Shown one piece after another: positions 12,580 to 26,547 of a stretch of DNA of 26,547 nt. Source of the stretch: an uncultured Zetaproteobacteria bacterium. GTDB taxonomy: Bacteria; Pseudomonadota; Zetaproteobacteria; Mariprofundales; Mariprofundaceae. Below the pieces are notes generated by a model that was given only the letters and a program-made list of their open reading frames with translations, had not been told where the DNA came from and ran no database searches. Positions within the stretch are counted from its first letter, which is position 1, and each line of letters starts with the position of its first letter. Where the stretch lies: positions 1 through 26,547 of the forward strand of contig CAZQZF010000002.1 in assembly GCA_964597745.1 (NCBI GenBank), in the 5' to 3' direction. A program made the translations under genes and the position numbers.

Positions 12580-12699
12580 CGGCTCAATGAGGTTTCGCTC
12601 CCCACCTGTACCATCTATTGGTAATGGATATATATGACCGCAAGCTTGTGAATGTGATCATGAACCAATGAAGATGATATAATTCGGGGACTATCCTAA

Positions 12700-12859
12700 C
12701 CTGCACTATTCATGAATCGCCGTGATGATCGCGCAGGGCCTTTGTTCGTAACGGATTCCGAGGAAGGAGTGCGTAGCCGTGCATACGGGCGACCAACGAG
12801 GGATTCGGTGCGGGCAAAGGAACAAGCAAGGGCGCGGCAGTATTTATGAATAGTGCAGG
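12700..12859. mobile_element. MITE, 160 bp, with 18-bp terminal inverted repeats and a CTAA target-site duplication
   Basis: cctgcactattcatgaat … atttatgaatagtgcagg (17/18); CTAA at 12696-12699 and 12860-12863; related ends at 123-154 and 9676-9696. Confidence 0.75.
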
Positions 12860-12876
12860 CTAAGAGGTGGGGTTTC

Positions 12877-13065
12877 ATGTTGCAGATGGCAATTGCAGAT
12901 TTTTACAATGCCCAGCAAGCGGGGTTGGTCAGGGTGTTGATCGAAGGTGATACATATTACATTGTCGGCGATAATCTGATCGGTTCAGGGACAGCCTACA
13001 CCCGCGAAGAGATCGAACAGGCAGCCATGGCGACAGTTTTCGATGTCGAATACCTACAGGCATAA
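12877..13065 (+). CDS. Small hypothetical protein (62 aa), convergent with card1
   Basis: GAGGTG upstream of ATG 12877; plausible globular composition; no family recognised; 12-nt overlap with the card1 3' end. Confidence 0.3.
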   Translation: MLQMAIADFYNAQQAGLVRVLIEGDTYYIVGDNLIGSGTAYTREEIEQAAMATVFDVEYLQA

Positions 13066-14196
13066 TGGTTGATTCCGAACCTCTCCTTGATGTTGAATCC
13101 AGCGTCGAATCTTTTCATCCAAATGCCGGATGTCACGGCCCGTGCAGACAGCAATCCGGGCCTCGCTTGCCCGATTTCTGTCATGTTTTCCAAGCTTTTG
13201 GAAACTGACCAGCATGGATGCGGCGCGCAAACCGCCCAGGGCATCGGTTAATGCATCAAGCTTGTACACTGCATCCGAGCCGCCCTGTTTGAACTGTTTT
13301 GTCTTGCACTCAATCAGATGCAATCTGTTATCACACAAAAAAACGACATCAAGTTCATTGCATACCTCACCGCGCACCACGTTCAATCCCTGAGCCAGGT
13401 CATGGATATGCGGGTTGACGCTGCGCATGTGATGGATCACGGAAAAAACATGATGCTCCAGCCAACCGCCATTGACAAAAAAGCGGGCATCCTCATCCCG
13501 GAATCGCACCTGATCACCAGCGACCTCAAGCAGATTTTCCGCTGCAAACAGCCCCATTAAATCACCCAATTCTTTCCAGCGCCGTTTATCTTTGGGGACA
13601 GATGTCTGTAGCGTTGGATGCGCCTGATAGGCCAGATAATTCAGTGTTCCAAGCGGTGCGGTGAAGCGGTCAATCTCACTGATCAAGGTTCGGGTTAATT
13701 GGCGCAAATGTTTGGGCATGGCAGTGCGATTCATTGTCTTGCTCTGCACGCCATGCGCTTGCAGGAATTGCGGCAGACGAATTCTATCCTCGATGTCGAA
13801 TGCCTTTCTATCGGACGGATGCATCCAGATAACGCGATCCTTGTCAGGGTGGACATAAAAAATCGGCAATCCGAGTCCGCGAAACACCTCGTAAGCCGCA
13901 ATACTCATCGGCTTGGTGCCGCCAGTGGCATTTAAAGCGATGCTGCCCTCATGTTGCTCCAACAGTTCAAATACCCGATCTCGGATATGCTCCACATCCA
14001 TGGCATCATCAATCGGCCAGATAGATACGCGTACGCCGCATGGCTGAATCACCAGCTTGAGACGCTCAGCCTGCAACTTCTTTTCCGGGCTGGTCAGGAG
14101 GATCACTTCTTTCGGTTGAAATGAGGCATCCAGCAGCGGCGTGATATTCGGTGTTGGCTGATCGGAAACCAGGCAGAGGTGGCAGGTGGATTTCAT
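13054..14196 (-). CDS. card1: Card1/Can2-like CARF plus PD-(D/E)xK nuclease (DUF1887)
   Basis: HLCLVSDQPTPN, CARF motif LNATGGTKPMSIAAY, NGGWLE, NELDVV…LIECKT. Confidence 0.85.
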   Translation of the reverse strand: MKSTCHLCLVSDQPTPNITPLLDASFQPKEVILLTSPEKKLQAERLKLVIQPCGVRVSIWPIDDAMDVEHIRDRVFELLEQHEGSIALNATGGTKPMSIAAYEVFRGLGLPIFYVHPDKDRVIWMHPSDRKAFDIEDRIRLPQFLQAHGVQSKTMNRTAMPKHLRQLTRTLISEIDRFTAPLGTLNYLAYQAHPTLQTSVPKDKRRWKELGDLMGLFAAENLLEVAGDQVRFRDEDARFFVNGGWLEHHVFSVIHHMRSVNPHIHDLAQGLNVVRGEVCNELDVVFLCDNRLHLIECKTKQFKQGGSDAVYKLDALTDALGGLRAASMLVSFQKLGKHDRNRASEARIAVCTGRDIRHLDEKIRRWIQHQGEVRNQPLCL

Positions 14197-15425
14197 GCCA
14201 CCAGATCAGCCAGAGGCAGTGCTGTCACGCCGCCGCCCAGAGGCAGGCGCACATCACCGGGATGAATCACATAGCCGGGTGCAACCAGTGCTCCAAAGAG
14301 TGCTGAAAATTCATGGATGCCTCTGGCATAAGCCGGTTTGGGCGTACTGGATAGTTTAATTTCAACAGGATGCAGCCTGCCGTCTGATTCGATGATGATA
14401 TCCACCTCGCACCCTGCTGCCGTACGCCAGAACCAGACAGGAGGCCGTTCGCCCCGGTGCATATAATGCTTGACGATTTCGGCCAGAACGACGTTTTCCA
14501 TCAGCGCTCCACCCATAGGCCCGGCTGCGGCATGGAGGGGATCACGTAACCCAATCAGATAACAGAGGATGCCCGTATCCATGAAATAGACTTTCGGTCG
14601 TTTAACCAGGCGTTTGCCCACATTGGCATGATAGGGGCGCAATATAAAAATCTGGTAAGTCGCCTCCAGCACGGATATCCATGCCTTGATCGTATTGACT
14701 GCAATGCCAAGATCACGCGCAAGATCGGAAAGGTTGAGCAACTGGGCATTGTGTGCAGCCAGTGCGCGAAGAAAGGTTTGAAACTGTGTTAAATCGCCAA
14801 TCTGACGCAGGTTGCGTACATCACGCTCCAGATAGGTTTGCACATAAGCGGAAAACCACAGGGAAACATCCCTTTCAGGCGATGCTGCCAGTTCAGGATA
14901 GCCGCCACGCAGCACGTTGCGCCAGAGTTCATTGCCAGTAAAAGGTTTAGATGCCTGACCAGTCGATGCGCCTTCCCACGGAAACCGGACAGGCCCGGTT
15001 TGTTTCAATTCCCTGAGGGAAAGGGGCAAAAGTGTCAGCATGGCGGCGCGACCCGCCAGTGATTCAGAAATTTGCTGTGTGAGAAGAAGATTTTGTGAAC
15101 CGGTCAGCAGGTAACGCCCCGCATGATCCCTGTCCGCATCCACCTGTTCTTTGATATAAGGAAGCAGTCCTGGCGCGTATTGTACCTCATCGAAAATCAC
15201 CGGTGCCGGATACATGGCCAAAAAACCTCTTGGGTCTGCCGCCGCAGCCTGACGCACATCGGGCGGCTCCAGCGAAACGTAGGCGTAGTCATGGCCGAAC
15301 ATCCGTTTAAGCAGCGTTGTCTTGCCTGACTGGCGCGGTCCGGTCAGCACCAGAACAGGGAACTCTGCTACAGCCCGGCGGACAACAGATTCAATATTAC
15401 GGGGAATATATCCTTTCATAGCCAT
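14193..15425 (-). CDS. AAA_14 ATPase with DUF4143 C-terminus
   Basis: Walker A GPRQSGKTT, Walker B IFDEVQ, LTGSQ, LAGR, GGYPE, YLERDVR; C-terminal EVDIII…VEIK nuclease-like motif. Confidence 0.9.
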   Translation of the reverse strand: MAMKGYIPRNIESVVRRAVAEFPVLVLTGPRQSGKTTLLKRMFGHDYAYVSLEPPDVRQAAAADPRGFLAMYPAPVIFDEVQYAPGLLPYIKEQVDADRDHAGRYLLTGSQNLLLTQQISESLAGRAAMLTLLPLSLRELKQTGPVRFPWEGASTGQASKPFTGNELWRNVLRGGYPELAASPERDVSLWFSAYVQTYLERDVRNLRQIGDLTQFQTFLRALAAHNAQLLNLSDLARDLGIAVNTIKAWISVLEATYQIFILRPYHANVGKRLVKRPKVYFMDTGILCYLIGLRDPLHAAAGPMGGALMENVVLAEIVKHYMHRGERPPVWFWRTAAGCEVDIIIESDGRLHPVEIKLSSTPKPAYARGIHEFSALFGALVAPGYVIHPGDVRLPLGGGVTALPLADLVA

Positions 15426-15430
15426 ACTCT

Positions 15431-15463
15431 ATGCATATTTGCATTTCAAATGCAAATATGCAT
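15431..15463. promoter_or_regulatory. Perfect 33-bp palindrome, a candidate operator
   Basis: atgcatatttgcattt-c-aaatgcaaatatgcat, 16-bp perfect arms, 5 nt upstream of the ATPase start. The structure is certain; the function is inferred. Confidence 0.6.
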
Positions 15464-15483
15464 GAGGTAGTCTGCGCTATTTC

Positions 15484-15810
15484 TTAGTTAACAGCCGTTT
15501 TCCGTACCTGAAATTCCTCCAGCCGCGCATGGCAGCGAATCATGTCATCCATTGTCAATTCCCTGCCGCGAAGCTCTCGTGGCAGATCCAGTGAAAGATT
15601 GATATAGCGCGCTCCACGCTCACATACGGCGGCTGCAAGATGCACCGGCAATGAACCGATAACAGTATCGCCCGGCTGCACCTCACTCGTATCCAGATGG
15701 GCGCGGATTTCATCTGCCTCCATTCCCTGCAGACACAACCACTGCTGAGCTCCGGGATGCCGAGTGACAAACCATATACGGGAAGATGTCTTGCCTTCCG
15801 ATATGTTCAC
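15484..15810 (-). CDS. csx16: CRISPR-associated Csx16 (ring-nuclease family)
   Basis: WFVTRHPGA, GDTVIGSLPVHLAA, LDLPRELRGRELT motifs. Confidence 0.9.
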   Translation of the reverse strand: MNISEGKTSSRIWFVTRHPGAQQWLCLQGMEADEIRAHLDTSEVQPGDTVIGSLPVHLAAAVCERGARYINLSLDLPRELRGRELTMDDMIRCHARLEEFQVRKTAVN

Positions 15811-16883
15811 AGGTGTTTTCCCAACTGGTCAACAACAAAACAGTCACGCTCAAAATAACCAAATATTCGTTTCGCGCCCAGATCCGACCAGGCATACAAT
15901 TCGTGCGTGCAGGGGGGGTGCGGATCACCCTTCAGCCGTTTGAAATTGAGTGATCGCGGATTCGTTTTATCATAAAAATACCTGGCAAGTTCATCCATCC
16001 GTTCATTCACAATTCGTTTGCGTTCCGGTTGCAGCCCATTCACATCACGCTCAAAGCCGCATGAAAACCGGTAAGTATCCGCCAACGCGGGTAAAATAGA
16101 GTCTTCATATAATTTCGCTTTTGATTGATTCCAGACCAGTTCTCCCCAGTCTGACAGACAAACATCGCCGTCAATCTCCAGACGATAGAGCTCCGGGACC
16201 TCAGAAGGCAAGATATCAAGTCCAAGGTCAAGGCTGCGGAAGCCCTTTAGATGCTCACGCACCTCTTTCAGCGCATCCAGATAAACGGGCAGGCGGGGGA
16301 TTCGTAATAGCTCATTACCCGATTCAAAGATATAGATGCGCTCATCTGCATAGAATGCCCCCAGTGTTTGCATAAACCCCTGAATACTCTTGAAACCACC
16401 GGTGAGGTTGAACACAATGTGATAGCCTGATTGAGGAAGATCTTTTGCGCACCAGCGTGCAATATTTGCAAGCGCACGCCTAAAATGAGGCATGGAATCG
16501 GTGCGCAATCCCTCAAAGGTTTGCTCTTCCACACACAGCCCCGATTGCCGAAGCCACGCTTGTACGGCATCCGCGGCCTCCTTTCCCAACCATGTATCTG
16601 TGTGCAGCAGGATATGCTGATCCTGTTTTCCAAGATTCGGTTGATCACGGTAAAAATACATCAGTGCATTGATTTCAGCGCTTGCCTGTTTCGCCTCCTC
16701 CACGCTCATGCGCAGCATGCTATCGCGGCGATTCTGCAGGTGCCGGACGATCTGTTGACGGTGGTTAACAGGAATTGGCAAAGAACTGGCAGCATTACTG
16801 TATTGATTGCAAAGCCTGCGCACCTCCGGATCGGCCCTGTTGGTGATACAACTGGTGCCACAAAGACTGACGATATAGTTCAC
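15807..16883 (-). CDS. cami1: Cami1-like effector: APE2256-type CARF plus RelE-like mRNA interferase
   Basis: CGTS, SAEINAL, LLHTDT, FNLTGGFK, YIFESGNELLRIPRLP; C-terminal RelE-like domain (FKRLKGDP…HELYAWSDLGAKRIFG…LGKHL). Confidence 0.8.
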   Translation of the reverse strand: MNYIVSLCGTSCITNRADPEVRRLCNQYSNAASSLPIPVNHRQQIVRHLQNRRDSMLRMSVEEAKQASAEINALMYFYRDQPNLGKQDQHILLHTDTWLGKEAADAVQAWLRQSGLCVEEQTFEGLRTDSMPHFRRALANIARWCAKDLPQSGYHIVFNLTGGFKSIQGFMQTLGAFYADERIYIFESGNELLRIPRLPVYLDALKEVREHLKGFRSLDLGLDILPSEVPELYRLEIDGDVCLSDWGELVWNQSKAKLYEDSILPALADTYRFSCGFERDVNGLQPERKRIVNERMDELARYFYDKTNPRSLNFKRLKGDPHPPCTHELYAWSDLGAKRIFGYFERDCFVVDQLGKHL

Positions 16884-17347
16884 AGAAGTTTCTTTGTCGC
16901 TATATAGTTTCGTACAGATTCAAGCACTATCAGCAATGTCTGTGCATAATCATAAATACTGTTCAGCGCCTGAGCGCGATCTTCATCATTAAGCGGATAA
17001 TCGTGCGCCAGCCGGTTCCGAAGCAGCCGGGTTTCAATCCACTGCTCACTGTTGTCGATTAGCCTGCGTTTTTCCATAGCATGGAGGCAATCCAGCATCG
17101 AGACAGCCTCCTCCTGTTCAACCGTCAGCAGACCGCGGAACAACTGCCGCCCCAGCATATCCTGCAATTTACCGAAACGCATACAGAAGGCGTCAACACG
17201 CTCCAGCTCTTCCGGGGAAAGCACGCCTGTATTTCGACCATCCAGAGGAAAAATGGATGCCATCCGTTGCAGCGACCATTGCAGATGCTGAGCCAGCCGC
17301 GTGCATTGCTCCAGCGCCTCCGCCAACAATTTCCGCATATGAGTCAT
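16880..17347 (-). CDS. HEPN-like toxin (nucleotidyltransferase substrate-binding family)
   Basis: RVDAFCMRFGKLQD and Rx4H motif RNRLAHDY. Confidence 0.8.
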   Translation of the reverse strand: MTHMRKLLAEALEQCTRLAQHLQWSLQRMASIFPLDGRNTGVLSPEELERVDAFCMRFGKLQDMLGRQLFRGLLTVEQEEAVSMLDCLHAMEKRRLIDNSEQWIETRLLRNRLAHDYPLNDEDRAQALNSIYDYAQTLLIVLESVRNYIATKKLL

Positions 17348-17676
17348 AGTTCCACTCCCGTCTCAATGGCAACTTTCATGATGGTTTCCAACGGCTTGCC
17401 CCGCCGATGCAGCAGCAGATCAATCTTTTGCTCACCGAGCCGTCGCTGCAGGGCTACAGCCAGCCTGAGCTTGCGCTGGAACCAGTCGGAGGTGTCATCC
17501 ACTTCCAGATAAAGATCAATATCACCGCCCCGCTTCGCATCATCCACACGCGAGCCAAACAGATAAACGCAAGCGCCTGCGCCAAAGATTTCCTGAACGG
17601 CCTCGCGGATATGCTGTTGCTGAGCGGGGGTTAGGCGCAAGGTATTAACTGCGTTTTTCGGATAGTGCTTTGGCAA
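17344..17676 (-). CDS. Minimal nucleotidyltransferase (MNT) antitoxin
   Basis: LFGSRVDDAKRGGDIDL (GSx10DxD) and KIDLLL; true start is probably TTG 17640. Confidence 0.85.
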   Translation of the reverse strand: MPKHYPKNAVNTLRLTPAQQQHIREAVQEIFGAGACVYLFGSRVDDAKRGGDIDLYLEVDDTSDWFQRKLRLAVALQRRLGEQKIDLLLHRRGKPLETIMKVAIETGVEL

Positions 17677-18772
17677 TCTTTTTTGGCCGTTGCTTGAACT
17701 TCGGCTTATGCTTCTTGCCCATCACCGCATCGGGATTGGCCATGATTCCCCTGTACTTTTTCTCCATCCAGTCGCACAGATAACTTGCCACCTCTGGCAT
17801 GATCATGTCATGTTCCTCCAAGTATTGTTCCATATCCTGAAGGAAAGTCCCGTTATTGCCCCAACGCGATTCAGATTGATGCAGCAGTGCCAACTCCCGT
17901 TGACCGGGTGTCATTGCTGCCAGGCGAGCAGCCTGCTCTCTCTCTGCCGATACCTGTTTTTGTTGCTCACAGACTGCCTCGCGAACTGCTTCCTCCTCTT
18001 GCTGCGCTTGCTCATCCACCGCCATCGCCCCATAGCCGACTGCTGTCTTGGAACCAAACCCCAGCCAGTCAAAAACGTGCTCAAAACATTGTTTCAGCAT
18101 GACCTGCCAATCAAGAATGCCGGTCGGGCGAATCATTTGAACATGGAAGGCAAACTGCGCACCGGGAGCAACCGTAAGAAAAGGAATAGGATTAGGGGAT
18201 TCAGAATCGTGGGGTGATGCGATTCCTTCCTGAAGATACGCACTATGGTGCGGGGTCATGATATCCAGAGCCAGTTTACCCTGCGGAAATACATCCCAAA
18301 AGTTCAATGCGCCCTGGCTGTCATCGTCTGATCTACTGCCGAACAACTCGTCCACTACGCCAACATCAACTTTCAGTTCTTCAGCAGCACGAAGCATTAC
18401 TCCTTTCACCGACGAACCGGGCAGATAAGGAAGACCATAGGGGTTAAGGAATGCGAAGCCGTTTTCCAGAGGGTGTTCGTAGCCCATGCCTGTCGCAAAA
18501 GGCGCCGTGGCGATGGCATATTCAGAGTAAACAGAATCGCCTAATGTCAAAGCCTGAAACTGCTGCCGTTGTGCCAGAGAGTGCTGCCGTTGTGCCAGAG
18601 AGTGCTGCCGTTGATCATCAGGATGCAGTGCCAGCACCTTTTTGATTGCATCAGTTTTTTTATCCTTAACCATTTCCCATTGTTCATTCCAGATCGGGAA
18701 ATACATGCCAAACCGATGACCGGGCGCAGCCTGTTGCATATCGCGCATATATTGTGGAACTGCGGCTTTCAT
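17645..18772 (-). CDS. cmr6: Type III-B RAMP protein Cmr6, orphan in this window
   Basis: ENGFAFLNPYGLPYLPGSSVKG, GALNFWDVFP, DIMTPHH, SPNPIPFLTV, GFGSKTAVGYG; RBS TAAGGAG before ATG 18772. Confidence 0.85.
   Translation of the reverse strand: MKAAVPQYMRDMQQAAPGHRFGMYFPIWNEQWEMVKDKKTDAIKKVLALHPDDQRQHSLAQRQHSLAQRQQFQALTLGDSVYSEYAIATAPFATGMGYEHPLENGFAFLNPYGLPYLPGSSVKGVMLRAAEELKVDVGVVDELFGSRSDDDSQGALNFWDVFPQGKLALDIMTPHHSAYLQEGIASPHDSESPNPIPFLTVAPGAQFAFHVQMIRPTGILDWQVMLKQCFEHVFDWLGFGSKTAVGYGAMAVDEQAQQEEEAVREAVCEQQKQVSAEREQAARLAAMTPGQRELALLHQSESRWGNNGTFLQDMEQYLEEHDMIMPEVASYLCDWMEKKYRGIMANPDAVMGKKHKPKFKQRPKKIAKALSEKRS
18561..18613. repeat. In-frame 21-nt tandem repeat (2.5 copies) inside cmr6
   Basis: Unit tgctgccgttgtgccagagag at 18561 and 18582, partial at 18603; protein QRQHSLA-QRQHSLA-QRQ. 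Confidence 0.9.
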
Positions 18773-18782
18773 GATTTTCTCC

Positions 18783-18986
18783 TTAACCTGCATGCCGTAA
18801 CAGCTCTTCCGGTGCGTCCACAGGCAATACGCCATCTTTTTCAGCATCCAAAATAGTGATCTGACCAAGGCCATCTTCCGTTATTCCCGCCACCATATTC
18901 CAGCCATAGGAGATGTCCCGAATGATGGGTTTATCGTTAAAACGGATAAACAGCAGGTCTTCCTTATCATCATAGGTAATTTTCAT
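18783..18986 (-). CDS. DUF2283-like small protein (putative antitoxin)
   Basis: MKITYDDKEDLLFIRF…GQITILDA; ATGA overlap with the upstream gene. Confidence 0.75.
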   Translation of the reverse strand: MKITYDDKEDLLFIRFNDKPIIRDISYGWNMVAGITEDGLGQITILDAEKDGVLPVDAPEELLRHAG

Positions 18987-19249
18987 GTTATTAGCTCCCA
19001 ACGGATCATGACGGTCTTGATCACCAGATTTTCTTCTTGTACTGCGGCGGCACACATCAAATTATCATGACGATGGGCAAACGCATGATAAATCCAGAAA
19101 TGCTGCTTATCTTTTTCCTTCACGGTTCCACCTTCAATCAACGCCAACAGTTCACCTTTATGGATTCCTCGCTCCTGCATCCGTGCAATGGCATGCCGGG
19201 TAATTACGACACGACGATGGAAGCGTTTGCTGAACATCTTATCACTCAA
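18983..19249 (-). CDS. DUF4258-like small protein (putative RNase toxin)
   Basis: VITRHAIARMQERGI…LVIKTVM; TTG start (ATG 19237 is an alternative). Confidence 0.75.
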   Translation of the reverse strand: MSDKMFSKRFHRRVVITRHAIARMQERGIHKGELLALIEGGTVKEKDKQHFWIYHAFAHRHDNLMCAAAVQEENLVIKTVMIRWELIT

Positions 19250-19336
19250 TCAGAACCCCGGTGTCTGCAAACTGCCGCAGCCTGTTGTATATCGCACACA
19301 TATTGTGAAACAGCAGCCTGCATGATTTTCTCCTTA
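19246..19336 (-). pseudogene. Diverged duplicate of the cmr6 RBS and 5' end (25-codon mini-ORF)
   Basis: 19276-19336 versus 18725-18785: 53/61 identical, no gaps; MQAAVSQYVCDIQQAA versus MKAAVPQYMRDMQQAA. Confidence 0.8.
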
Positions 19337-19546
19337 TCCATACATCAGGCGACGCTCATGCGGGGCTGGAACTTCAACATCATCTTCGCGTGCGCTGGAG
19401 AACCACAATGCCATGGCCTGATGGATATTATTGCGTGCTTCACTGCCGCTTGCGCCATGTGCCATGCAACCGGGCAACTCCGGCACCTCAGCAATAAATG
19501 CATTATCTTCTTTGCTCCAGCAAATAATGGTTTCGTATTTATACAT
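19334..19546 (-). CDS. hicB: HicB-family antitoxin (short, no adjacent HicA)
   Basis: WSKEDNAFIAEVPELPGCMAHG…EA…I..AMALW. Confidence 0.85.
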   Translation of the reverse strand: MYKYETIICWSKEDNAFIAEVPELPGCMAHGASGSEARNNIHQAMALWFSSAREDDVEVPAPHERRLMYG

Positions 19547-19813
19547 CGGAGTTCTTCTTGCCCTTATGATTTATTTGATCCAAATCATCTTCCCAACTAT
19601 CCCGTTCTGCATGAATGTAGGCCATAATTTCCTGCATGGATTTTCGCGGATAATCCTTTCCATCCAGAGATTCGAGGAATGACAATAGACTTTCATCTGA
19701 TCGATCCTTTTCTTTATTTTCGTTCATAACCAAATACTTCGATTTCCTCTTCCTACCTCTCCCCTTGGCCACAATGCCGTCCTGATATTGACTCTCAATT
19801 TTACTGCCTGCAT
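19539..19813 (-). pseudogene. Probably frameshifted small antitoxin-like gene
   Basis: RBS TAAGGAG and ATG 19813 give MQAVKLRVNI, which stops early; a different frame gives …QDGIV…SMQEIMAYIHAERDSWE to the stop at 19539. Confidence 0.45.
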
Positions 19814-19880
19814 TTTATTTCTCCTTACGCCTGCTCAGACATCACTCTCGGAAAGGTAATACATGACTTTCAAAGGGCGC

Positions 19881-21347
19881 TCATTTTTTACCTCTATTGA
19901 ATTTTTCCTGCAAAGCCTTTAATGCATCAGAGGAAGCAGAATGATGCCTGGTTAGTTGCCCCTTAGGTTTCTTTTGTAGATGACCTTGTTTCATCTTGTC
20001 TTTCCGTTCTTGCGCTATAGGCATCCTGTTTTTCTGACGCATTCGTTGGCGGGCAATTTCAGCGGGGGGTAGGCCTTGCTGAATCTCCGGATGCGAACTG
20101 TGTTCCTTATTCCGAATCGACTGCTTAATTTTCGGTGCCAAGATTTCAGGCAATACTTCATTACCTTCTGCCATTTCCACCAACAACCACCCAAAGGGGC
20201 GCAACCTCTTTTGTTCATCCTGACTGCTCGCAGCCAGCCAGACAGTTTTTGCCTGTTTCTCCCATAAAGGTTGCTTGTCGCGCCCCTGCATAATCTTGAT
20301 ATTGCGCACACCATTGAGCGTAACTGATTCCGCACCGCTATGCCTTCCGACGCGCAATAAAAATGCCTTGTTATTTTTTAATAGCATTTGTACAGAAGCC
20401 TGTTGCAACAAGGCCAATGTTGCTTTTCTCCATTCCTGATCGAGAAGTCCTCTACCGCTTAACAGTTTTGTTTCCATATCCCATATTGGGCTGTAAAAAT
20501 GATTACAGGCGATGGCAATATCTTCAAAGCTAAAACGATACTCTGGAAGCTTTATTTTCTGATGCTCCAGTACTCCTCCAGGATTACTGATGCCAATTTG
20601 TCCAGTATAGGCGCGTACGTGAAATGGCGTTACGGTCTCCAATAATTGATACAATCCCGCTTTTTCCGCTTGTGACTTGATATTGTCTCCTGCCTTTTTC
20701 CTGCGATTGACGGCAAACAGGACTTCTGTCTGTGTCATGTTCTGCTTGTCCTGTCCGGCGCAATCACCAACCTGAACCAGTCTCATTGGGTCTTTGAAAA
20801 TTTCCTTCATGGAGTACTGAAACAGTCTTTGTTGTAGATCTCTGTTACGTTCGCCTCTTTCAGCCTGTTGCCCATGATTGATGCTATTCAACAATGCTGT
20901 TCGGATAGCGCCCTTCAAACCAGACCCCGGCAATATGGGATGGCGATTCAGGGGATTATAGAAGACTCTTTCGATTTCCAGTTTGTTCTGCACAGTTCTT
21001 CCGCCCGATTCCCTGTGCGCCGCCTGACCAATTTTACTTCGATAAAGTTCGGCCACGCCATGACTCACCCGTGTCTGGTTTATCGCGTGAGGAATCAATT
21101 GCTTCCTGTGCTCAAAAAACAATGCCTGCACGCGCATCAGCATTCGGCCACTGGCCTTACCTTCCAGCATTGACGCTAATTTCTTGCGCGTATCATCAGG
21201 CAACGAAGACAGTGCTCTATGATCAAATTCATACAATATATCGCCTTCAATGACATAATTTGTGGGAGCATAATCTTCATCCGTTCCCATATGCACGGGA
21301 GAAAGTGAAGTGATCAACACTTGCCGTGTTTCAGGAATGCCACTCAT
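19881..21347 (-). CDS. csm5: Type III-A RAMP Csm5
   Basis: LSPVHMG…Y.PTNY, ILPGSGLKGAIRTA, DPMRLVQVGD, LRVGRHSGAESVT, PFGW. Confidence 0.9.
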   Translation of the reverse strand: MSGIPETRQVLITSLSPVHMGTDEDYAPTNYVIEGDILYEFDHRALSSLPDDTRKKLASMLEGKASGRMLMRVQALFFEHRKQLIPHAINQTRVSHGVAELYRSKIGQAAHRESGGRTVQNKLEIERVFYNPLNRHPILPGSGLKGAIRTALLNSINHGQQAERGERNRDLQQRLFQYSMKEIFKDPMRLVQVGDCAGQDKQNMTQTEVLFAVNRRKKAGDNIKSQAEKAGLYQLLETVTPFHVRAYTGQIGISNPGGVLEHQKIKLPEYRFSFEDIAIACNHFYSPIWDMETKLLSGRGLLDQEWRKATLALLQQASVQMLLKNNKAFLLRVGRHSGAESVTLNGVRNIKIMQGRDKQPLWEKQAKTVWLAASSQDEQKRLRPFGWLLVEMAEGNEVLPEILAPKIKQSIRNKEHSSHPEIQQGLPPAEIARQRMRQKNRMPIAQERKDKMKQGHLQKKPKGQLTRHHSASSDALKALQEKFNRGKK

Positions 21348-22294
21348 GCGTCCACTTCCAGATGAATGGCCAACACAGGGGTATAACCCTGTTGTACCGT
21401 TTCAGGAATTGCCCGGGAAAGGCTGCCATCGCCTCCTAGGCCATGGCCGACAAACAGACTTTCCTGATATTTGTTCGGGGTCAGTACCGCACCTGTGTCA
21501 ACCAACAAGACGGGAGATTTGAAGGGTCGTCCTGTATGCACAGCCATGTCGCCATGTCTGCCAAAGCGAGTGAATGGCTGATACCAGCAGTGTTCAGCAT
21601 CAAGGGATAGCCCCTGTGATGCGCAGGGAGCAAGCGTCATCCAGGCATTGGCTTTTTCCTGTTCAGGCCATGTAGCGGAATCTTTTTTCAATAGCTCAAA
21701 TTTCCCTAGGCCAATGCTAGTATCTCGACCATAGCCACTGGTTCCTATATCCTCAATCATCATCTCGATCTCTTCCTGACCAATTCGATTAACATCAAAA
21801 CAAAGATAGATTTCCAACAGCATGCCTTGCACCGGCCAATATTGGGGCATTTGGTATGGCGCAAAAAGGTCAGTTCCCGTGGTACCGCTTAATCGGTTGA
21901 TGGTATTATGGGGTTGCGCTTTTTCCTGCCATAGCGGTGTACCTGCAATCTCCGTTTCACTTTTACAAACACGCAACCATTCCCGAACAGGTAAAATGAA
22001 ATTGGACTTCGGCAACCATTGGCGTTTCTTTACCTGCTTTCTATCTGCATCGGGTACATCATCATAGCGATACAGCGGCCATGCCGGTTTCGGAAGGAAC
22101 CCGGCGGGAAATGCATCGGAAACAACCAGAAACGGTTTTCCCTCTGTGTAGCCCTGTAGCAATGTCCGAAGTCTGTCTTCACCAAACCTGTGCCGGATTA
22201 TCCAGCACAGTTGCCCAAACAACGTATCCCCGCGAATGCTTCCGCCAAATGCAGATCGCGGCTGAATACGCATAGTGAGTGGCGCCATGGTCAC
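21344..22294 (-). CDS. csm4: Type III-A RAMP Csm4
   Basis: GDTLFGQLCW, LVVSDAFP, HNTINR, GYGRDTSIGLGKF. Confidence 0.92.
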   Translation of the reverse strand: MTMAPLTMRIQPRSAFGGSIRGDTLFGQLCWIIRHRFGEDRLRTLLQGYTEGKPFLVVSDAFPAGFLPKPAWPLYRYDDVPDADRKQVKKRQWLPKSNFILPVREWLRVCKSETEIAGTPLWQEKAQPHNTINRLSGTTGTDLFAPYQMPQYWPVQGMLLEIYLCFDVNRIGQEEIEMMIEDIGTSGYGRDTSIGLGKFELLKKDSATWPEQEKANAWMTLAPCASQGLSLDAEHCWYQPFTRFGRHGDMAVHTGRPFKSPVLLVDTGAVLTPNKYQESLFVGHGLGGDGSLSRAIPETVQQGYTPVLAIHLEVDA

Positions 22295-22296
22295 AA

Positions 22297-23010
22297 CTAC
22301 AGTTTCACCCGTTCCAGTCTTTCCTGAATGGATTGTCCATCTATTTGCAGACTACGAAAAGCGATTTTCCCATAGCCGCGAGACAACGATCCTCCCAAGC
22401 CAGTCAATTCAATCAGTTTGAGCCCACGAAAAATCGGTTTAAGTAAATCCTCACTGTCAACCACCTTCAGACTCAACTGAAACCTGAATCTTGCTCCGCC
22501 AGGAACACGCTCGGTGTTCCTTGGATTCTCCGCTGTTCCTTTGATACGATCAATAGTATTTTCCATCTTGGTTTCAGTGAGCAGCAGGTTTTTATCATCC
22601 ATCTCCCTGACCCACATCGCATCAAGAGCACAATCCCAGAAAGCCAGGCGGGTTGGGCCAATTTCCCTGACCAAATTCTCATCCATATTGGATCCGGTTG
22701 GCGAATAGCCAAAAAGTCGCAATATCTCGATACCCTGAGCTCTGTTGCCATCCAATTTGTGGATATGATCAATGCCAAGAGGTTTGCCGTTTGTCATACC
22801 AACCACGCCTGCATGCCATTCCATCAGGCTGCGCATCTTGCCCTTGATACTGGAACCGGGGATATATGGCTGATTGCTGACAGGGTTTTTGATGACCGGG
22901 TTATCCGTACCTCCAATATGCATCTCAGTATTGCCACTGCCAATATGGAGCCCTGAGACCAGTTCAATGATTCCGTTTATTTTTGAGATTCTATCCAGTT
23001 TCATGATCAA
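22297..23010 (-). CDS. csm3: Type III-A Csm3 backbone RNase
   Basis: SGLHIG, IGGTDNPVIK (catalytic Asp present), PYIPGSSIKGKMR, ENTIDR, ERVP, LGGSLSRGYG; ATG 23004 is an alternative start. Confidence 0.95.
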   Translation of the reverse strand: MIMKLDRISKINGIIELVSGLHIGSGNTEMHIGGTDNPVIKNPVSNQPYIPGSSIKGKMRSLMEWHAGVVGMTNGKPLGIDHIHKLDGNRAQGIEILRLFGYSPTGSNMDENLVREIGPTRLAFWDCALDAMWVREMDDKNLLLTETKMENTIDRIKGTAENPRNTERVPGGARFRFQLSLKVVDSEDLLKPIFRGLKLIELTGLGGSLSRGYGKIAFRSLQIDGQSIQERLERVKL

Positions 23011-23453
23011 TCTCCCTTTTCAACCTTGTAAAATCCCAGAAACGCTTCAAAAAATAATTTGGCAGTCCTTAAATCACTAAGGCCGTGCACTGAATCAATA
23101 ATTTGTTCCAATAACTCAACAAAAACAGTATCAACCAGTTTGCGACCTTTGGCATAGGCGGCTTTGGCCTTGAGCATCCGAATAAAGGGTAAATACTCAT
23201 CAAATCGTTCCGGATTTTGCCGAACCTTTTCTTCCCACATCACCAGTTCATCATAAAAACGACGGACTTGGGTGCCTTTATTCATTTCGCGTTTAACATC
23301 AGCAACTTTTTTTGCCGCTTTCCTGGCTGTAGTATCAAATAGGTTAGATGGGATATTCCCTCTATCATTTTTAAAGCAAATGTTGACATCTAGGGTTCGC
23401 GGTTCTTGATGACTGCGGCTGCCGCTACGGGGATTTGTTCGTGGATTATACAT
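23007..23453 (-). CDS. csm2: Type III-A small subunit Csm2
   Basis: TQVRRFYDEL, LKAKAAYAKGR, FFEAFLGFYK; lies between cas10 and csm3. Confidence 0.92.
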   Translation of the reverse strand: MYNPRTNPRSGSRSHQEPRTLDVNICFKNDRGNIPSNLFDTTARKAAKKVADVKREMNKGTQVRRFYDELVMWEEKVRQNPERFDEYLPFIRMLKAKAAYAKGRKLVDTVFVELLEQIIDSVHGLSDLRTAKLFFEAFLGFYKVEKGD

Positions 23454-23462
23454 ACTTTCTCC

Positions 23463-26132
23463 TTAATACCGTTCGTGATAAAGGTGCAAAAAAAGTGGCA
23501 CCCGAAACTTGCTTCCAAATAGATGAATCGGCTCTTTCAATACTTTTGCCAGTTCAACCATGCGCTGCTTACGTTCATCATTGTTAAGTCCACGGGTGCG
23601 TTCCAACATTCTCCAACTTCGGTAGGCGAACCATGCCTGCCAAATCGCATTTTCGATGTTTGGATGTTCCGATTTGAGGTTTTCTGACATGTTCGCCAGT
23701 TCCTGTAAGCGGTAAAGGTAGCCTGTGCTTAAACTATATTTCTCGCCAATGTTTTGGATATCATCGAAACAGCGCCACAACACTTCAAACTCTTTCCAGC
23801 TCGCAGTTTCACCAAATATAGTAATGGCATTCTTACCTTCATATAGCTTGGATGCATCCAGTGCAGTCTCCGCTATTTCTCCAAGCTGATGCACAGGCAG
23901 TCCCGGCTTGGTCATCACCAGCCCTGCTGAAAAATGGATGTCATGATTGTCTGCTACATAGCGCGAAAATTTCCGCTCTATTTCTCTAATCAATTTCACA
24001 GTGCTCTTCCATGGGCCGATCAGAAAAAAATCATCCCCGCCAGCGAAGACTGTATAGGTGCTTGGATACTTTTCCTGACACAGCATCGGCAAATAAACAG
24101 CAAAGAAAGCATTCATTTGACGAGATAGCGATGCCCACTTAGCAAAGGTCGGTCGCTCCAGACCCTTTTCAAAAATGGCCCCTAAATTATCCACATCTCC
24201 CTTGAGCACCATTAACGCGTCGCTGCCTTTCCACTTTCCTGATTCATCAACCCATAAATCATCCCTTGCGATATGCTCAAAGGTCTTGGGCGCAAGCGCA
24301 TCCCATTCTGATATCTTGTCCAACCCCTCGTAACGATCTTTGTCCCATGCATTCAACGCACCACACAGGGGGATATAAGCATCAATATTTCGCCGGGCAT
24401 AGCCTGAAAAAAGAGTGCTGTCCATATCAGCAGGCAGAGCATAATCCCATGCTCGCCGCAACTTTCCTTCTTTCGCCCATGCGCCGAATTTCCCTGTTGC
24501 ATCCTCGTCACCAGTGAAACTTGCCCAGTAACCAAACAGATTAAGCTTGAGCGTATGGTGGTTGGGGTTTTCTGTCGTTAGCAGCAGTCTGGCATAGTGC
24601 CCCAGCCACCGTCCGATCCGAATCTGATCAGCAGCAAGCCGTGATGCATATTTTCCAGCACCGGGTTCTATTTCTTCAATAGCCGGAGAACGGCCATCAA
24701 TAGCGCACACGCCCTTGTCCGCATCAAACGCATCCAGGAAGCTGTCAAAAACAGGCTTGGGGGCATGCTCGCAACAAAGCGAATATCGTTTTGTTTTCAT
24801 CTCTTCCAACTTGTGAAACAGGCAGCTAATCAATAGTTTGAAGGGCGCTTCTCTGTCTTTTCTTTTATTCAGAAAGTCATTACAGCACGCTGACTCCCAA
24901 GCCAGCCCGATACCCGACTGGCCATAGGTGTGTTCCAAAAACCACTGATCAACTTCCTGCTGTACTAATTGAAGTTTTTTCAGCGTTGCCTCACTGTTTG
25001 GAGCAACAATGAGAAACTTTCCAGCCGCATTGATAACCTGACTGGTTGGCGGAAGCTGCAGGCTTTCCAAGACCTTAAGTGCAACGCATTCCGTTAACAG
25101 GGATACATGGAATGAACGCCCGCGCATCAGCTTGGCTGCATTGCGCTGAGTTTCTCCCCCCGTAGCAAAAATAAATTCCTGGATGCCGAAAAAATCGCCC
25201 ATCACAATTAATAGTTTTTTCTCATCCCAATCATGCCTACTCTGCATCGCATCAATGGCGGAATCCTGATCCATCTGCTTATCGTGGTGATACCGCCATA
25301 AAGCCGTAGCAAGAGCAGACGTAGTTCGGGAGTGATCATACAGGGAAACTTCAGGTTTTGTGTTTCCAGCAGTCGCTGAAGGAATCGCATGAGTAAATGC
25401 TGCCCAAAGGGAGTCAAAGTGATCCAACCATAATGACCAGTTCTTTCGATGTGATGCCGGAATAGTTTTCAATGCCTCTGTAAAGCTATCCCAAAGTTGC
25501 CGGTACTCACTCTGTGCCTGGTTATTATGGTTGCTTTCGCACTCATCTGCCTTGACAGGAAACATTTGCTTTGCACTCATGGGTTTCAGCGGATGACGCC
25601 ACTTTAAATCTGCTTTGACTTCTTCTGTTTTTTGCTGCCAATGAATCTGTTCAAAAAGGGTCAGCTGCCTGGCGGTATAATGATTCCGTCCGGTTGATGT
25701 TTTCTCTTCTGCTACATTATAGGCTTCAAACTCCTCCCGCTCAAAACCAGAGGCGATTCGATCCGCTGTCGCCACAATCCACTGCAAAAATGTTTCTGGT
25801 TTGTGATGCTTGGCAGCAGCATTGATCATGGAGTCGGCGACATCAGGGCTTTTCCACGCTGGAAATGGAAGCATATCCTCACCAACCAGATCAGGAAGAT
25901 GGTGTTCAATCAGATCCATGGAAATAGCTGTATAGGCAGCATGAATATGTGTAAACCGGCCTGTTGCATCGGTAAATGCCTTTCGATGAGGGCAGTAAAG
26001 CTGCTTGTTAATCTCCAAATTTTCTTTATTTACCGGGTTGATACGGGCGCGTTCGGAGAATTTCCCCATGTCATGCAGTAAGGCAGATAAGGCAACCCTG
26101 CTGGATGCATCAAGTAAATCATTCTTCTTCAT
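23463..26132 (-). CDS. cas10: Cas10/Csm1
   Basis: HD motif LLHDMGKF, SLYDHS, GDFFGIQEFIF, RGRSF, KGDVDNLG, cyclase motif FAGGDDFF. Confidence 0.97.
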   Translation of the reverse strand: MKKNDLLDASSRVALSALLHDMGKFSERARINPVNKENLEINKQLYCPHRKAFTDATGRFTHIHAAYTAISMDLIEHHLPDLVGEDMLPFPAWKSPDVADSMINAAAKHHKPETFLQWIVATADRIASGFEREEFEAYNVAEEKTSTGRNHYTARQLTLFEQIHWQQKTEEVKADLKWRHPLKPMSAKQMFPVKADECESNHNNQAQSEYRQLWDSFTEALKTIPASHRKNWSLWLDHFDSLWAAFTHAIPSATAGNTKPEVSLYDHSRTTSALATALWRYHHDKQMDQDSAIDAMQSRHDWDEKKLLIVMGDFFGIQEFIFATGGETQRNAAKLMRGRSFHVSLLTECVALKVLESLQLPPTSQVINAAGKFLIVAPNSEATLKKLQLVQQEVDQWFLEHTYGQSGIGLAWESACCNDFLNKRKDREAPFKLLISCLFHKLEEMKTKRYSLCCEHAPKPVFDSFLDAFDADKGVCAIDGRSPAIEEIEPGAGKYASRLAADQIRIGRWLGHYARLLLTTENPNHHTLKLNLFGYWASFTGDEDATGKFGAWAKEGKLRRAWDYALPADMDSTLFSGYARRNIDAYIPLCGALNAWDKDRYEGLDKISEWDALAPKTFEHIARDDLWVDESGKWKGSDALMVLKGDVDNLGAIFEKGLERPTFAKWASLSRQMNAFFAVYLPMLCQEKYPSTYTVFAGGDDFFLIGPWKSTVKLIREIERKFSRYVADNHDIHFSAGLVMTKPGLPVHQLGEIAETALDASKLYEGKNAITIFGETASWKEFEVLWRCFDDIQNIGEKYSLSTGYLYRLQELANMSENLKSEHPNIENAIWQAWFAYRSWRMLERTRGLNNDERKQRMVELAKVLKEPIHLFGSKFRVPLFLHLYHERY

Positions 26133-26547
26133 CCCGCTTCCTCCTGCTTCAGTGCCATCATCTCATACCGGCCCATGCCCATCGTGGTCATTTTGCCGAT
26201 ATGCGTCCATTGACCCAGCCATAGCATCGGCCAGAGATGGTGCGCTTGAGCTGCTGTGAGGTCAAAGGCGCCAACCACGCCGCCAATTTTCATCGATGTT
26301 TTCTGGCGGCTGGAATAACGCTCTGTTTCCTGCCAGCGAAGGTCGGGGGCGCACCATTCTCCCGCTTCATCCACCGCGCATAATTGCCGCATGGCGGATT
26401 CATCGCCCCATGATGCGGCCAGACTGATCAACCTGCGCCGCAGTGCCCTGATCCATAGCTCCAGCGTCAGCGTATCCGGCGTGACAAAATGGCCCTGATG
26501 TTTGAACCGAACCGGCGTAATCAGTTGTAGATGCAATGTCTGCCCGG
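26129..26547 (-). CDS. cas6: Cas6, 3' part (open at the window edge)
   Basis: ITPVRFK, W.ETERYSSRQ…MKIGG and G-rich loop HIGKMTTMGMGRY; frame stays open to 26547; ATGA overlap with cas10. Confidence 0.88.
   Translation of the reverse strand, partial: GQTLHLQLITPVRFKHQGHFVTPDTLTLELWIRALRRRLISLAASWGDESAMRQLCAVDEAGEWCAPDLRWQETERYSSRQKTSMKIGGVVGAFDLTAAQAHHLWPMLWLGQWTHIGKMTTMGMGRYEMMALKQEEAG

Follow-up and report, generated by a model that had tools for sequence, protein, structure and literature searches.

The window analysed here is a 26,547-nt stretch of DNA from an uncultured Zetaproteobacteria bacterium (contig CAZQZF010000002.1), and it carries a CRISPR-Cas locus of type III beside the gene rpsO. 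With a probability of roughly 0.8, the locus is best explained as a strain-variable island at that site, consisting of a signalling-competent type III-A module, a standard set of genes for the response to cyclic tetra-adenylate (cA4), and a remaining tail built by repeated cassette exchange: an ordinary type III-A system in an unusually scrambled locus. All long open reading frames (ORFs) of the window lie on the minus strand, in the order cas6, cas10, csm2-csm5, a stretch of about 1 kb with small genes, cmr6, MNT, HEPN, a cami1-like gene and csx16. After csx16 come a 58-nt spacer, an ATPase gene, the Card1/Can2 gene (ending at 13054), a 164-nt repeat element and then rpsO, pnp and other housekeeping genes. 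Placement of the PNPase assigns the host to a lineage of the Mariprofundaceae (Zetaproteobacteria), and the locus is found in metagenomes of hydrothermal vents and microbial mats. The initial annotation of this DNA had proposed that everything after csm5 may form a single undescribed, layered dormancy circuit. The strand and coordinates that it assigned are correct, and its gene families are borne out by matches to Pfam, NCBIfam, PADLOC, the Protein Data Bank (PDB) and predicted folds; the evidence on history points elsewhere.

The most informative comparison is with the related locus L095, which occupies the same chromosomal site beside rpsO. Its order is cas6, cmr1-5, a hicA-like gene, hicB, cmr6, a vapB-like gene with a PIN gene, MNT, HEPN and a 48-codon cami1 remnant, followed by a vapB-like gene with a PIN fragment, csm6, a palindrome, the ATPase gene, Card1 and rpsO. 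The two loci match in blocks: the 3' end of cas6 is 93% identical at the nucleotide level and the match ends at the cas6 stop, hicB with a fragment of the cmr6 5' end is 82% identical, cmr6 84.5%, MNT-HEPN with the cami1 start 87%, palindrome-ATPase-Card1 91% and the rpsO region 97.5%. The synonymous divergence (dS) between window and L095 differs about 3-fold between blocks, from 0.26-0.33 for HEPN, ATPase and Card1 to 0.8-0.9 for hicB and cmr6, a spread that fits different histories of the blocks. Two further sister strains, L097 and L099 (PNPase 97-98% identical), have a urease operon or transporter genes beside rpsO and no CRISPR locus at that site, which makes the type III locus in its entirety an island that varies between strains there.

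The largest exchange concerns the effector complex itself. The visible 3' part of cas6 (26129..26547; Pfam CRISPR_Cas6, E 2.7e-16; frame open to the window edge) is 91% identical in amino acids to the cas6 that stands ahead of cmr1 in L095, and homology stops at 26124, at the cas6 stop and the first cas10 codons. From there, cas10-csm5 occupies the exact position of cmr1-5 in L095, between the same flanks. The csm cassette (19881-26132) has a GC content of 0.43-0.49, against 0.49-0.57 for the tail and the housekeeping genes, and its nearest csm operons are those of Competibacter and Desulfomicrobiaceae loci (cas10 51-52%, csm3 63-69% identity). A single gene of type III-B origin stays behind: cmr6 (17645..18772; TIGR01898 105 bits, cut-off 51; PADLOC Cmr6), encoding a Cas7-family subunit. 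It is an intact ORF of 375 aa with a probable start at 18772, after a GGAG Shine-Dalgarno motif, and cmr1-5 have no tblastn match in the window. The homologs of this cmr6 in L095 (78%), L093 (72%), L096 (58%) and L100 (51%) all close the cmr operon of a complete III-B locus, and more distant homologs likewise follow directly after cmr genes, with full cmr1-5 wherever the contig is long enough. Given the position of the csm cassette, the solo cmr6 is a leftover of the replacement. The initial annotation had recognised an orphan of the Cas7 family, and such a gene is indeed present, as the residue of a III-B to III-A cassette replacement.

Smaller exchanges have left traces of the same kind. A duplicated fragment of the cmr6 5' end, comprising the ribosome-binding site and about 20 codons, lies at 19246..19341; over some 75 nt it matches the true start region of cmr6 (18700-18790) with about 85% identity. 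It stands just after hicB and stops at a DUF4258 gene, and L095 (6735-7021) aligns through hicB into the fragment. The duplicate cmr6 start breaks off at the DUF4258-DUF2283 pair and so marks the point at which this pair was inserted. Fragments of the cmr6 5' end are seen at cassette junctions both here and in L095 (8729-8866, where the fragment is fused to an N-terminal fragment of csm6), and these repeated fragments suggest a recurrent substrate of recombination. The slot for the signalling effector also differs, holding cami1-csx16 in the window and csm6 in L093 and L095. Decay is seen among the relatives: card1 is internally deleted in L091 and reduced to a fragment in L096, and HEPN is lost in L093. 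In summary, the Mariprofundaceae III-B loci L093, L095 and L096 share cas6, hicB, cmr6 and MNT(-HEPN) with the window, and L095 also the ATPase-Card1-rpsO end at the same site, whereas the window has cas10-csm5 in place of cmr1-5 and cami1-csx16 in place of the csm6 of L093 and L095, and is without the hicA and PIN toxins.

The gene next to Card1 is a further variable piece. It encodes an AAA_14-DUF4143 ATPase (14193..15425; Pfam; PADLOC PDC-S01, a stand-alone defence candidate, E 7.4e-122 over residues 2-409) with intact Walker A (GPRQSGKT) and Walker B (VIFDE) motifs. The L095 ATPase is 95.6% identical in amino acids, with a ratio of nonsynonymous to synonymous substitution (dN/dS) of 0.08. 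In L089, L091 and L092 the gene is precisely absent: homology stops at 15428 and restarts at 14216. An insertion specific to the window, which these three loci brought into consideration, was rejected, as L095 carries the gene, making it a polymorphic cassette common to the sister strain. A scan of metagenomes with Card1 returned only two loci and is uninformative on the pairing of ATPase and Card1. The boundary of ATPase presence and absence adjoins a perfect, AT-rich palindrome of 33 nt (15431..15463, with no strand) in the spacer downstream of csx16. This palindrome is unique in the window, where 0 are expected by chance, and is 97-100% identical in L089-L092 and L095 while the flanking DNA is 77-91% identical. 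It is predicted to fold as an RNA hairpin (z = -4.75) and is a candidate operator, RNA hairpin or recombination site.

The interference module has every part of a type III-A complex. The cas10/csm1 gene (23463..26132; Pfam Csm1_B and Cas10-Cmr2_palm2) overlaps cas6 in an ATGA, and its product retains both catalytic motifs, HD (residue 20) and GGDD (residue 698), as had been noted at the outset. It is followed by csm2 (Cas11; 23007..23453; Pfam Csm2_III-A, E 4e-14), csm3 (the Cas7 backbone RNase; 22297..23010; TIGR02582 209 bits, cut-off 90), csm4 (Cas5; 21344..22294; TIGR01903 119 bits, cut-off 55) and csm5 (19881..21347; 488 aa; TIGR01899 39.4 bits, cut-off 38.3), the final gene of the cassette. 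The genes csm2-csm5 are contiguous, with overlaps, and the set is complete. Csm5 (19881-20150) and Cmr6 (17645-17720) both have long Lys/Arg-rich C-terminal tails that extend beyond the regions matched by the profiles.

Downstream stand two effectors and one off-switch of families that respond to cA4. The first effector is a Cami1-family protein of 358 aa (15807..16883), matched over its full length by the PADLOC CARF7 CARF_RelE model (E 2.9e-110). The N-terminus is a CARF domain of the CARF7/APE2256 type (Pfam Cas_APE2256, E 1.9e-30). By sequence it matches Cami1 (8phb) and the Crn1-type Sis0811 in the PDB, with the CARF and linker part alone aligned. The C-terminus gives no match to Pfam RelE or ParE families, and a profile comparison of this domain with Escherichia coli RelE (hhalign) was not significant (E 0.069). 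Its predicted structure is more telling. The AlphaFold2 model of the full protein has a mean confidence (pLDDT) of 93.9, and its top Foldseek matches are Cami1 8phb and 8phj (E 5e-15, about 380 columns). Modelled alone, the C-terminal 100 residues reach a pLDDT of 93.2, and the top 30 or so Foldseek matches are all toxins of the RelE superfamily (HP0894/YafQ, RelE, YoeB, HigB), with TM-scores of 0.5-0.6 and a best E of 1.8e-3. The name Cami1-like is thus backed by predicted structure. The window protein shares with solved Cami1 a CARF7-type sensor, a linker and a RelE-fold C-terminal domain in equal order, and solved Cami1 is its best whole-chain fold match. It differs in being only 18-19% identical and about 50 residues shorter, and it belongs to a large subfamily of about 365 aa (Thioploca, cyanobacteria, Chloroflexi and others).

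The second effector is a Card1/Can2 protein (13054..14196) with a CARF domain and a PD-(D/E)xK nuclease (Pfam CARF_Card1 and Card1_endonuc; PADLOC CARF4 CARF_PDDEXK, E 4.6e-125). It matches Can2 7bdv in the PDB with E 2e-48, with VC1899 and Can2 both at about 1e-49, and its catalytic motif is intact (D283..E295-x-K297). The two-domain architecture and the D..ExK motif are those of Can2/Card1 (7bdv, 6wxw) and VC1899 (1xmx); the difference is that the gene in the window, like that in L095, is preceded by the overlapping AAA_14-DUF4143 gene, which is absent from most relatives. Between the two effectors lies csx16 (15484..15810; Pfam Cas_VVA1548, E 1.3e-36, 125 bits, cut-off 25; TIGR02620 120 bits, cut-off 46). 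A member of the Csx16 family has been shown by experiment to be a cA4-specific ring nuclease (PMC12409355). Cami1 and Can1-2 belong to the cA4 effectors, which are frequently found together (PMC11229360); Can1-2 loci mostly carry a ring nuclease, and loci with several cA4 effectors and one ring nuclease are common (PMC11229360; PMC12409355). The order Cami1-like, Csx16, Card1 recurs with 78-79% identity in L089, with 74% in L091/L092 and with 52% in L004/L005/L007, a zetaproteobacterial locus in which the three genes follow directly after csm5. By family assignment this recurrent core corresponds to the published pattern of two cA4 effectors with a cA4 ring nuclease. The cA4 reading offered by the initial annotation, with Csx16 as off-switch, fits both this typing and the literature (PMC12409355; PMC11229360).

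The mechanism proposed for the locus follows from families and motifs, the analysis itself dealing in folds, motifs, gene order and evolutionary history. Cas6 would mature the crRNA, and the Cas10-Csm2-5 complex would bind complementary invader RNA. Csm3 would then cut the target RNA, the HD domain of Cas10 would cut single-stranded DNA and the GGDD palm of Cas10 would make cA4. Binding of cA4 to the CARF domains of both effectors would set off two responses: cleavage of ribosome-bound mRNA by the Cami1-family CARF-RelE protein, so that translation stops, and damage to DNA or RNA by the Can2/Card1 CARF-PD-ExK nuclease. Degradation of cA4 by Csx16 would reset the cell. The island itself would go back to a III-B locus of the order cas6-cmr1-5-hicAB-cmr6-MNT-HEPN-effector slot-palindrome-(ATPase)-Card1. 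A foreign cas10-csm5 cassette of lower GC would have replaced cmr1-5, with cas6, an intact cmr6 and the tail retained; the DUF4258-DUF2283 pair would have been inserted in the 5' end of cmr6, duplicating that end; the vapB-like gene and hicB would have lost their toxin partners; and the effector slot would have come to hold cami1-csx16 in the window and csm6 in the sister strain.

This arrangement agrees with described type III-A cA4 systems (PMC11229360; PMC12409355) in the HD and GGDD motifs of Cas10, in Csm2-5 and Cas6, in the two cA4-family effectors with one ring nuclease, and in the placement of accessory genes directly downstream of the last RAMP gene. It differs in that the accessory genes of the window are interleaved with toxin–antitoxin (TA) genes, the solo cmr6 and the ATPase gene.

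The TA content is smaller than it first appears: the initial annotation had counted several TA modules, of which two are intact pairs and two others are antitoxin remnants without a toxin. The first intact pair comprises an MNT nucleotidyltransferase resembling the MntA antitoxin (17344..17640, or to 17676) and a HEPN RNase resembling the HepT toxin (16880..17347), joined by an ATGA overlap. The MNT protein scores 30.1 against a cut-off of 26.9 for Polbeta (Pfam Polbeta/NTP_transf_2) and 26.5 against 60, below the cut-off, for NCBIfam MntA; it has the GS..DxD motif (GSRVDDAKRGGDIDL) and is 83% identical to its counterpart in L095 and 79% to that in L093. The HEPN protein matches NTase_sub_bind and HepT-like profiles only weakly, below their cut-offs (22 bits against 31.8 and 17.8 against 23.5), and its RNRLAH motif (Rx4H) is present. 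The second pair consists of a toxin-like DUF4258 gene (18983..19249; Pfam E 1.5e-10) and an antitoxin-like DUF2283 gene (18783..18986; Pfam E 1.3e-7), again with an ATGA overlap; the DUF4258 gene is not found at this position in L095 or L093.

The two remnants lie side by side. One is a frameshifted vapB-like antitoxin gene, orf77 (19539..19813), read in one frame from 19813 for its N-terminus (MQAVKLRVNI) and in another for the remainder. It has no Pfam match. L095 has homologs of 87 aa and 82 aa and L096 one of 82 aa, all of them ahead of a PIN gene, and this PIN toxin partner is absent in the window. The other encodes a HicB-like antitoxin of 70 aa (19334..19546; Pfam HicB_lk_antitox, E 3e-8), 79% identical to the HicB of L095, which follows a HicA-like gene of 85 aa between cmr5 and cmr6. 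L096 has a hicA-hicB pair at this cmr5/cmr6 junction as well, and in L093 the junction holds HicB; tblastn with the HicA-like gene of L095 and L096 gave no match to any part of the window. A reading of orf77 and hicB as a TA pair of their own was rejected, given the missing hicA and PIN genes and the frameshift. Most likely, the TA pairs and the AAA_14-DUF4143 gene are modules acting on their own account, as addiction modules or as independent means of abortive infection, and some of them probably ride on read-through transcription.

TA pairs occur at other junctions among the relatives. In the Mariprofundaceae III-B loci, such pairs lie between core cas genes, with overlaps (L093 6132-6766, L096 7596-8263, L095 6501-6963): MNT-HepT at the cmr2/cmr3 junction, an 82-aa gene with PIN at cmr3/cmr4 and hicAB at cmr5/cmr6. 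The Competibacter loci with the closest csm operons (L040 7325-8054, and L059) have a different pair, RHH-PIN, at the junction of csm5 and cami1. L100 has no TA genes at all, with Card1, Csm6 and Csx16 alone around cmr1-6. Shah et al. classed TA pairs adjoining type III modules as mobilome genes (PMC6546367).

A wider survey gives the same picture. It covered 80 genomic loci encoding the Cami1-like family and the contigs of the closest homologs (n = 86), with neighbours found by tblastn; ORF calling was approximate, so that the counts of neighbours are rough. Near the Cami1-like gene, Csx16 was found in 19/86, cmr6 in 14/86, Card1 in 8/86, the ATPase in 4/86, HEPN in 3/86 and MNT in 1/86. Pfam typing of neighbouring ORFs places mostly the RAMP gene that closes a csm or cmr operon upstream of the Cami1-like gene, and rotating cA4 components downstream (Card1, Csx16, Csm6-HEPN, WYL/Csa3, Csx3 and B116-like). 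TA genes nearby are sporadic and of varied families, and the leading neighbour families in this typing do not include AAA_14/DUF4143.

Several points weigh against treating the tail as mere exchanged cargo, and others limit how firmly the proposed mechanism and history can be put. The role of cA4 as the messenger, the ribosome-dependent cleavage by the Cami1-like protein and the activity of Csx16 are predicted from family membership, and the proposed direction of the csm/cmr swap is the most parsimonious one for four related loci. Between DUF4258 and csx16 no gap exceeds about 10 nt, and most of the tail is likely co-transcribed; a scan for promoters and terminators over 12.5-20.2 kb gave counts equal to shuffle expectation and says nothing on operon structure. 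The shared tail genes, including cmr6, MNT, HEPN and the ATPase gene, are under purifying selection (dN/dS 0.08-0.23). No shared tail gene is visibly decaying, so that a passenger is not to be equated with a functionless gene. The 4-nt overlap that joins MNT-HEPN to cami1 is retained, and down to 58% identity the pair diverges in step with cami1-csx16; this linkage is more stable than random insertion. Finally, hicAB is found within the cmr operon in three lineages.

The last two points raise the possibility that MNT-HEPN is a true partner of cami1-csx16, either as an addiction module that keeps the effector genes in place or as a second RNase, set free once ATP-dependent AMPylation is disturbed by type III activation, and that hicAB is likewise tied to the effector complex. 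The overlap of 4 nt between HEPN and the start of cami1 is present in the window, in L002/L003, in L091/L092 and at the remnant in L095. Its homologs, each directly upstream of cami1 or its remnant, are 59% (L002/L003), 79% (L091/L092) and 88% (L095) identical, tracking the Cami1-like proteins at 58% and 74%. The HicB position is retained across L095, L096 and L093, the window keeping hicB alone, and there is precedent for a CRISPR effector directly activating HicB (PMC13448076). However, L089/L090, which hold the closest relative of this cami1, are without MNT-HEPN and have a 40%-identical DUF2283-like gene directly upstream of cami1 instead; HEPN is lost in L093 and present in just 3 of the 86 Cami1-like loci, and co-inheritance would equally be expected of a tightly linked selfish TA pair. 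The HicB of the window is a short form, whose length suggests that it lacks the ribbon-helix-helix (RHH) domain of the Cas13a-linked HicB, and its faster change (11 unique substitutions in the window against 1 in L095) suggests relaxed constraint. A functional link of this kind is therefore unlikely, and exchange of cassettes remains the preferred reading for these genes too.

The solo Cmr6 could also be more than a leftover, either as a hybrid subunit taken into the Csm complex or as a component for another cmr locus of the same genome. Relaxed selection had been expected for it and was rejected: its dN/dS is 0.23, and it has 20 unique substitutions against 53 in the L095 ortholog, with no excess on the window branch. 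The ORF is intact with its own Shine-Dalgarno motif, and the 5' duplication at the DUF4258-DUF2283 insertion preserved a full-length gene. Yet a recent swap would equally leave an intact gene, and the divergent C-terminus of the L095 protein accounts for part of the asymmetry of 20 to 53. Every other homolog examined stands directly after cmr genes, whereas here the csm set is complete and has Csm5 in the equivalent position; a working Cmr6 is accordingly improbable. Much the same doubt attaches to the broader proposal that the TA genes of this Mariprofundaceae lineage (hicAB at cmr5/cmr6, MNT-HEPN joined to cami1 by overlap, others at cmr2/3 and cmr3/4) have been drawn as functional components into the type III response or its maintenance, with the solo Cmr6 perhaps acting beside Csm.

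Less probable still is the single co-evolved, co-regulated circuit of the initial annotation, in which the TA pairs act as backups independent of cyclic oligoadenylate. The arrangement of the genes on which it builds is real: all lie on the same strand and, apart from two spacers, either overlap or stand no more than 10 nt apart, and the four 4-nt overlaps described for MNT/HEPN (17344), HEPN/cami1 (16880), cami1/csx16 (15807) and ATPase/card1 (14193) are all real, with DUF4258/DUF2283 as a fifth. All genes are under purifying selection, and the scaffold hicB-cmr6-MNT-HEPN-...-ATPase-Card1 is common to window and L095. This scaffold is shared only with a close relative at the same site (97.5% identical flank), however, as expected of common descent. 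The parts are swapped, truncated or absent in L095, L089, L091, L093, L096 and L100: near relatives exchange TA cassettes, ATPase, effector and even the effector complex, the extras are rare over the 86 loci, and two of the supposed TA modules are toxin-less. The gene-order search, in which a lack of conserved synteny was to count against the circuit, largely found such a lack, with only the core recurring. RNA points the same way for one stretch. The only RNA contig of the locus, from a small run of a mat metatranscriptome, covers 19281-19841, that is, the vapB-like remnant and hicB; it hints at a separate, abundant transcript there, as expected of a strong TA-type promoter, although with so small a run its absence elsewhere means little, and a hairpin at the contig end was not significant. 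The general idea of immunity coupled to TA-type dormancy has, moreover, already been published (PMC3506569), as has the coupling of Cas13a with HicAB (PMC13448076).

A chimeric assembly of two loci at the csm5-TA-cmr6 junction can be set aside as extremely improbable: although the source metagenomes hold several related strains and public contigs break at a 21-nt in-frame tandem duplication in cmr6 (18561-18613, HSLAQRQ twice), independent Logan contigs from two studies, run X1 (18584-26532) and run X3 (18584-20651), each span the junction, which is therefore real, and adjacent Logan contigs tile the remainder of the locus at even depth.

A repeat search found no CRISPR array in the window; one might lie past cas6, beyond its edge. 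No Rfam families or tRNAs were found, and no adaptation genes are visible within the window. The 164-nt repeat element between card1 and rpsO (12697-12860) is a miniature inverted-repeat transposable element (MITE); its terminal inverted repeats are 18 bp long (CCTGCACTATTCATGAAT / ATTTATGAATAGTGCAGG), and its target duplication is CTAA. It shows about 100-fold excess depth in the DNA runs, with many loose ends, and an empty-site variant is present in run X3 and in L095.

As a defence system the locus adds little, as cA4 acting on Cami1 and Can2, with Csx16 as off-switch, would be expected of known families. Its value lies in being a clear natural example of a type III rebuild: cmr1-5 exchanged for cas10-csm5 at one site, with cas6 and the cA4 tail kept, together with a clean record of the turnover of TA genes within cas operons. 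A swap with the tail retained agrees with what has been published on CARF effectors, namely that they serve various type III subtypes. The breakpoints lie at TA genes and at the repeated cmr6 5' fragment, which suggests recurring TA cassettes as the source of homology in such swaps. Published CRISPR-TA systems resemble the locus in having TA genes in or against cas operons, with HicB, at times as an orphan, adjoining the CRISPR effector. They differ in that regulatory or physical coupling has been demonstrated there; this locus is of type III, its HicB is short and the TA families at a given junction vary between relatives. Were the TA genes nevertheless working parts, the locus would stand beside CreTA or Cas13a-HicAB as their type III equivalent; as it stands, it offers material for testing whether type III immunity gains stability or reach from protein TA pairs within cas operons.

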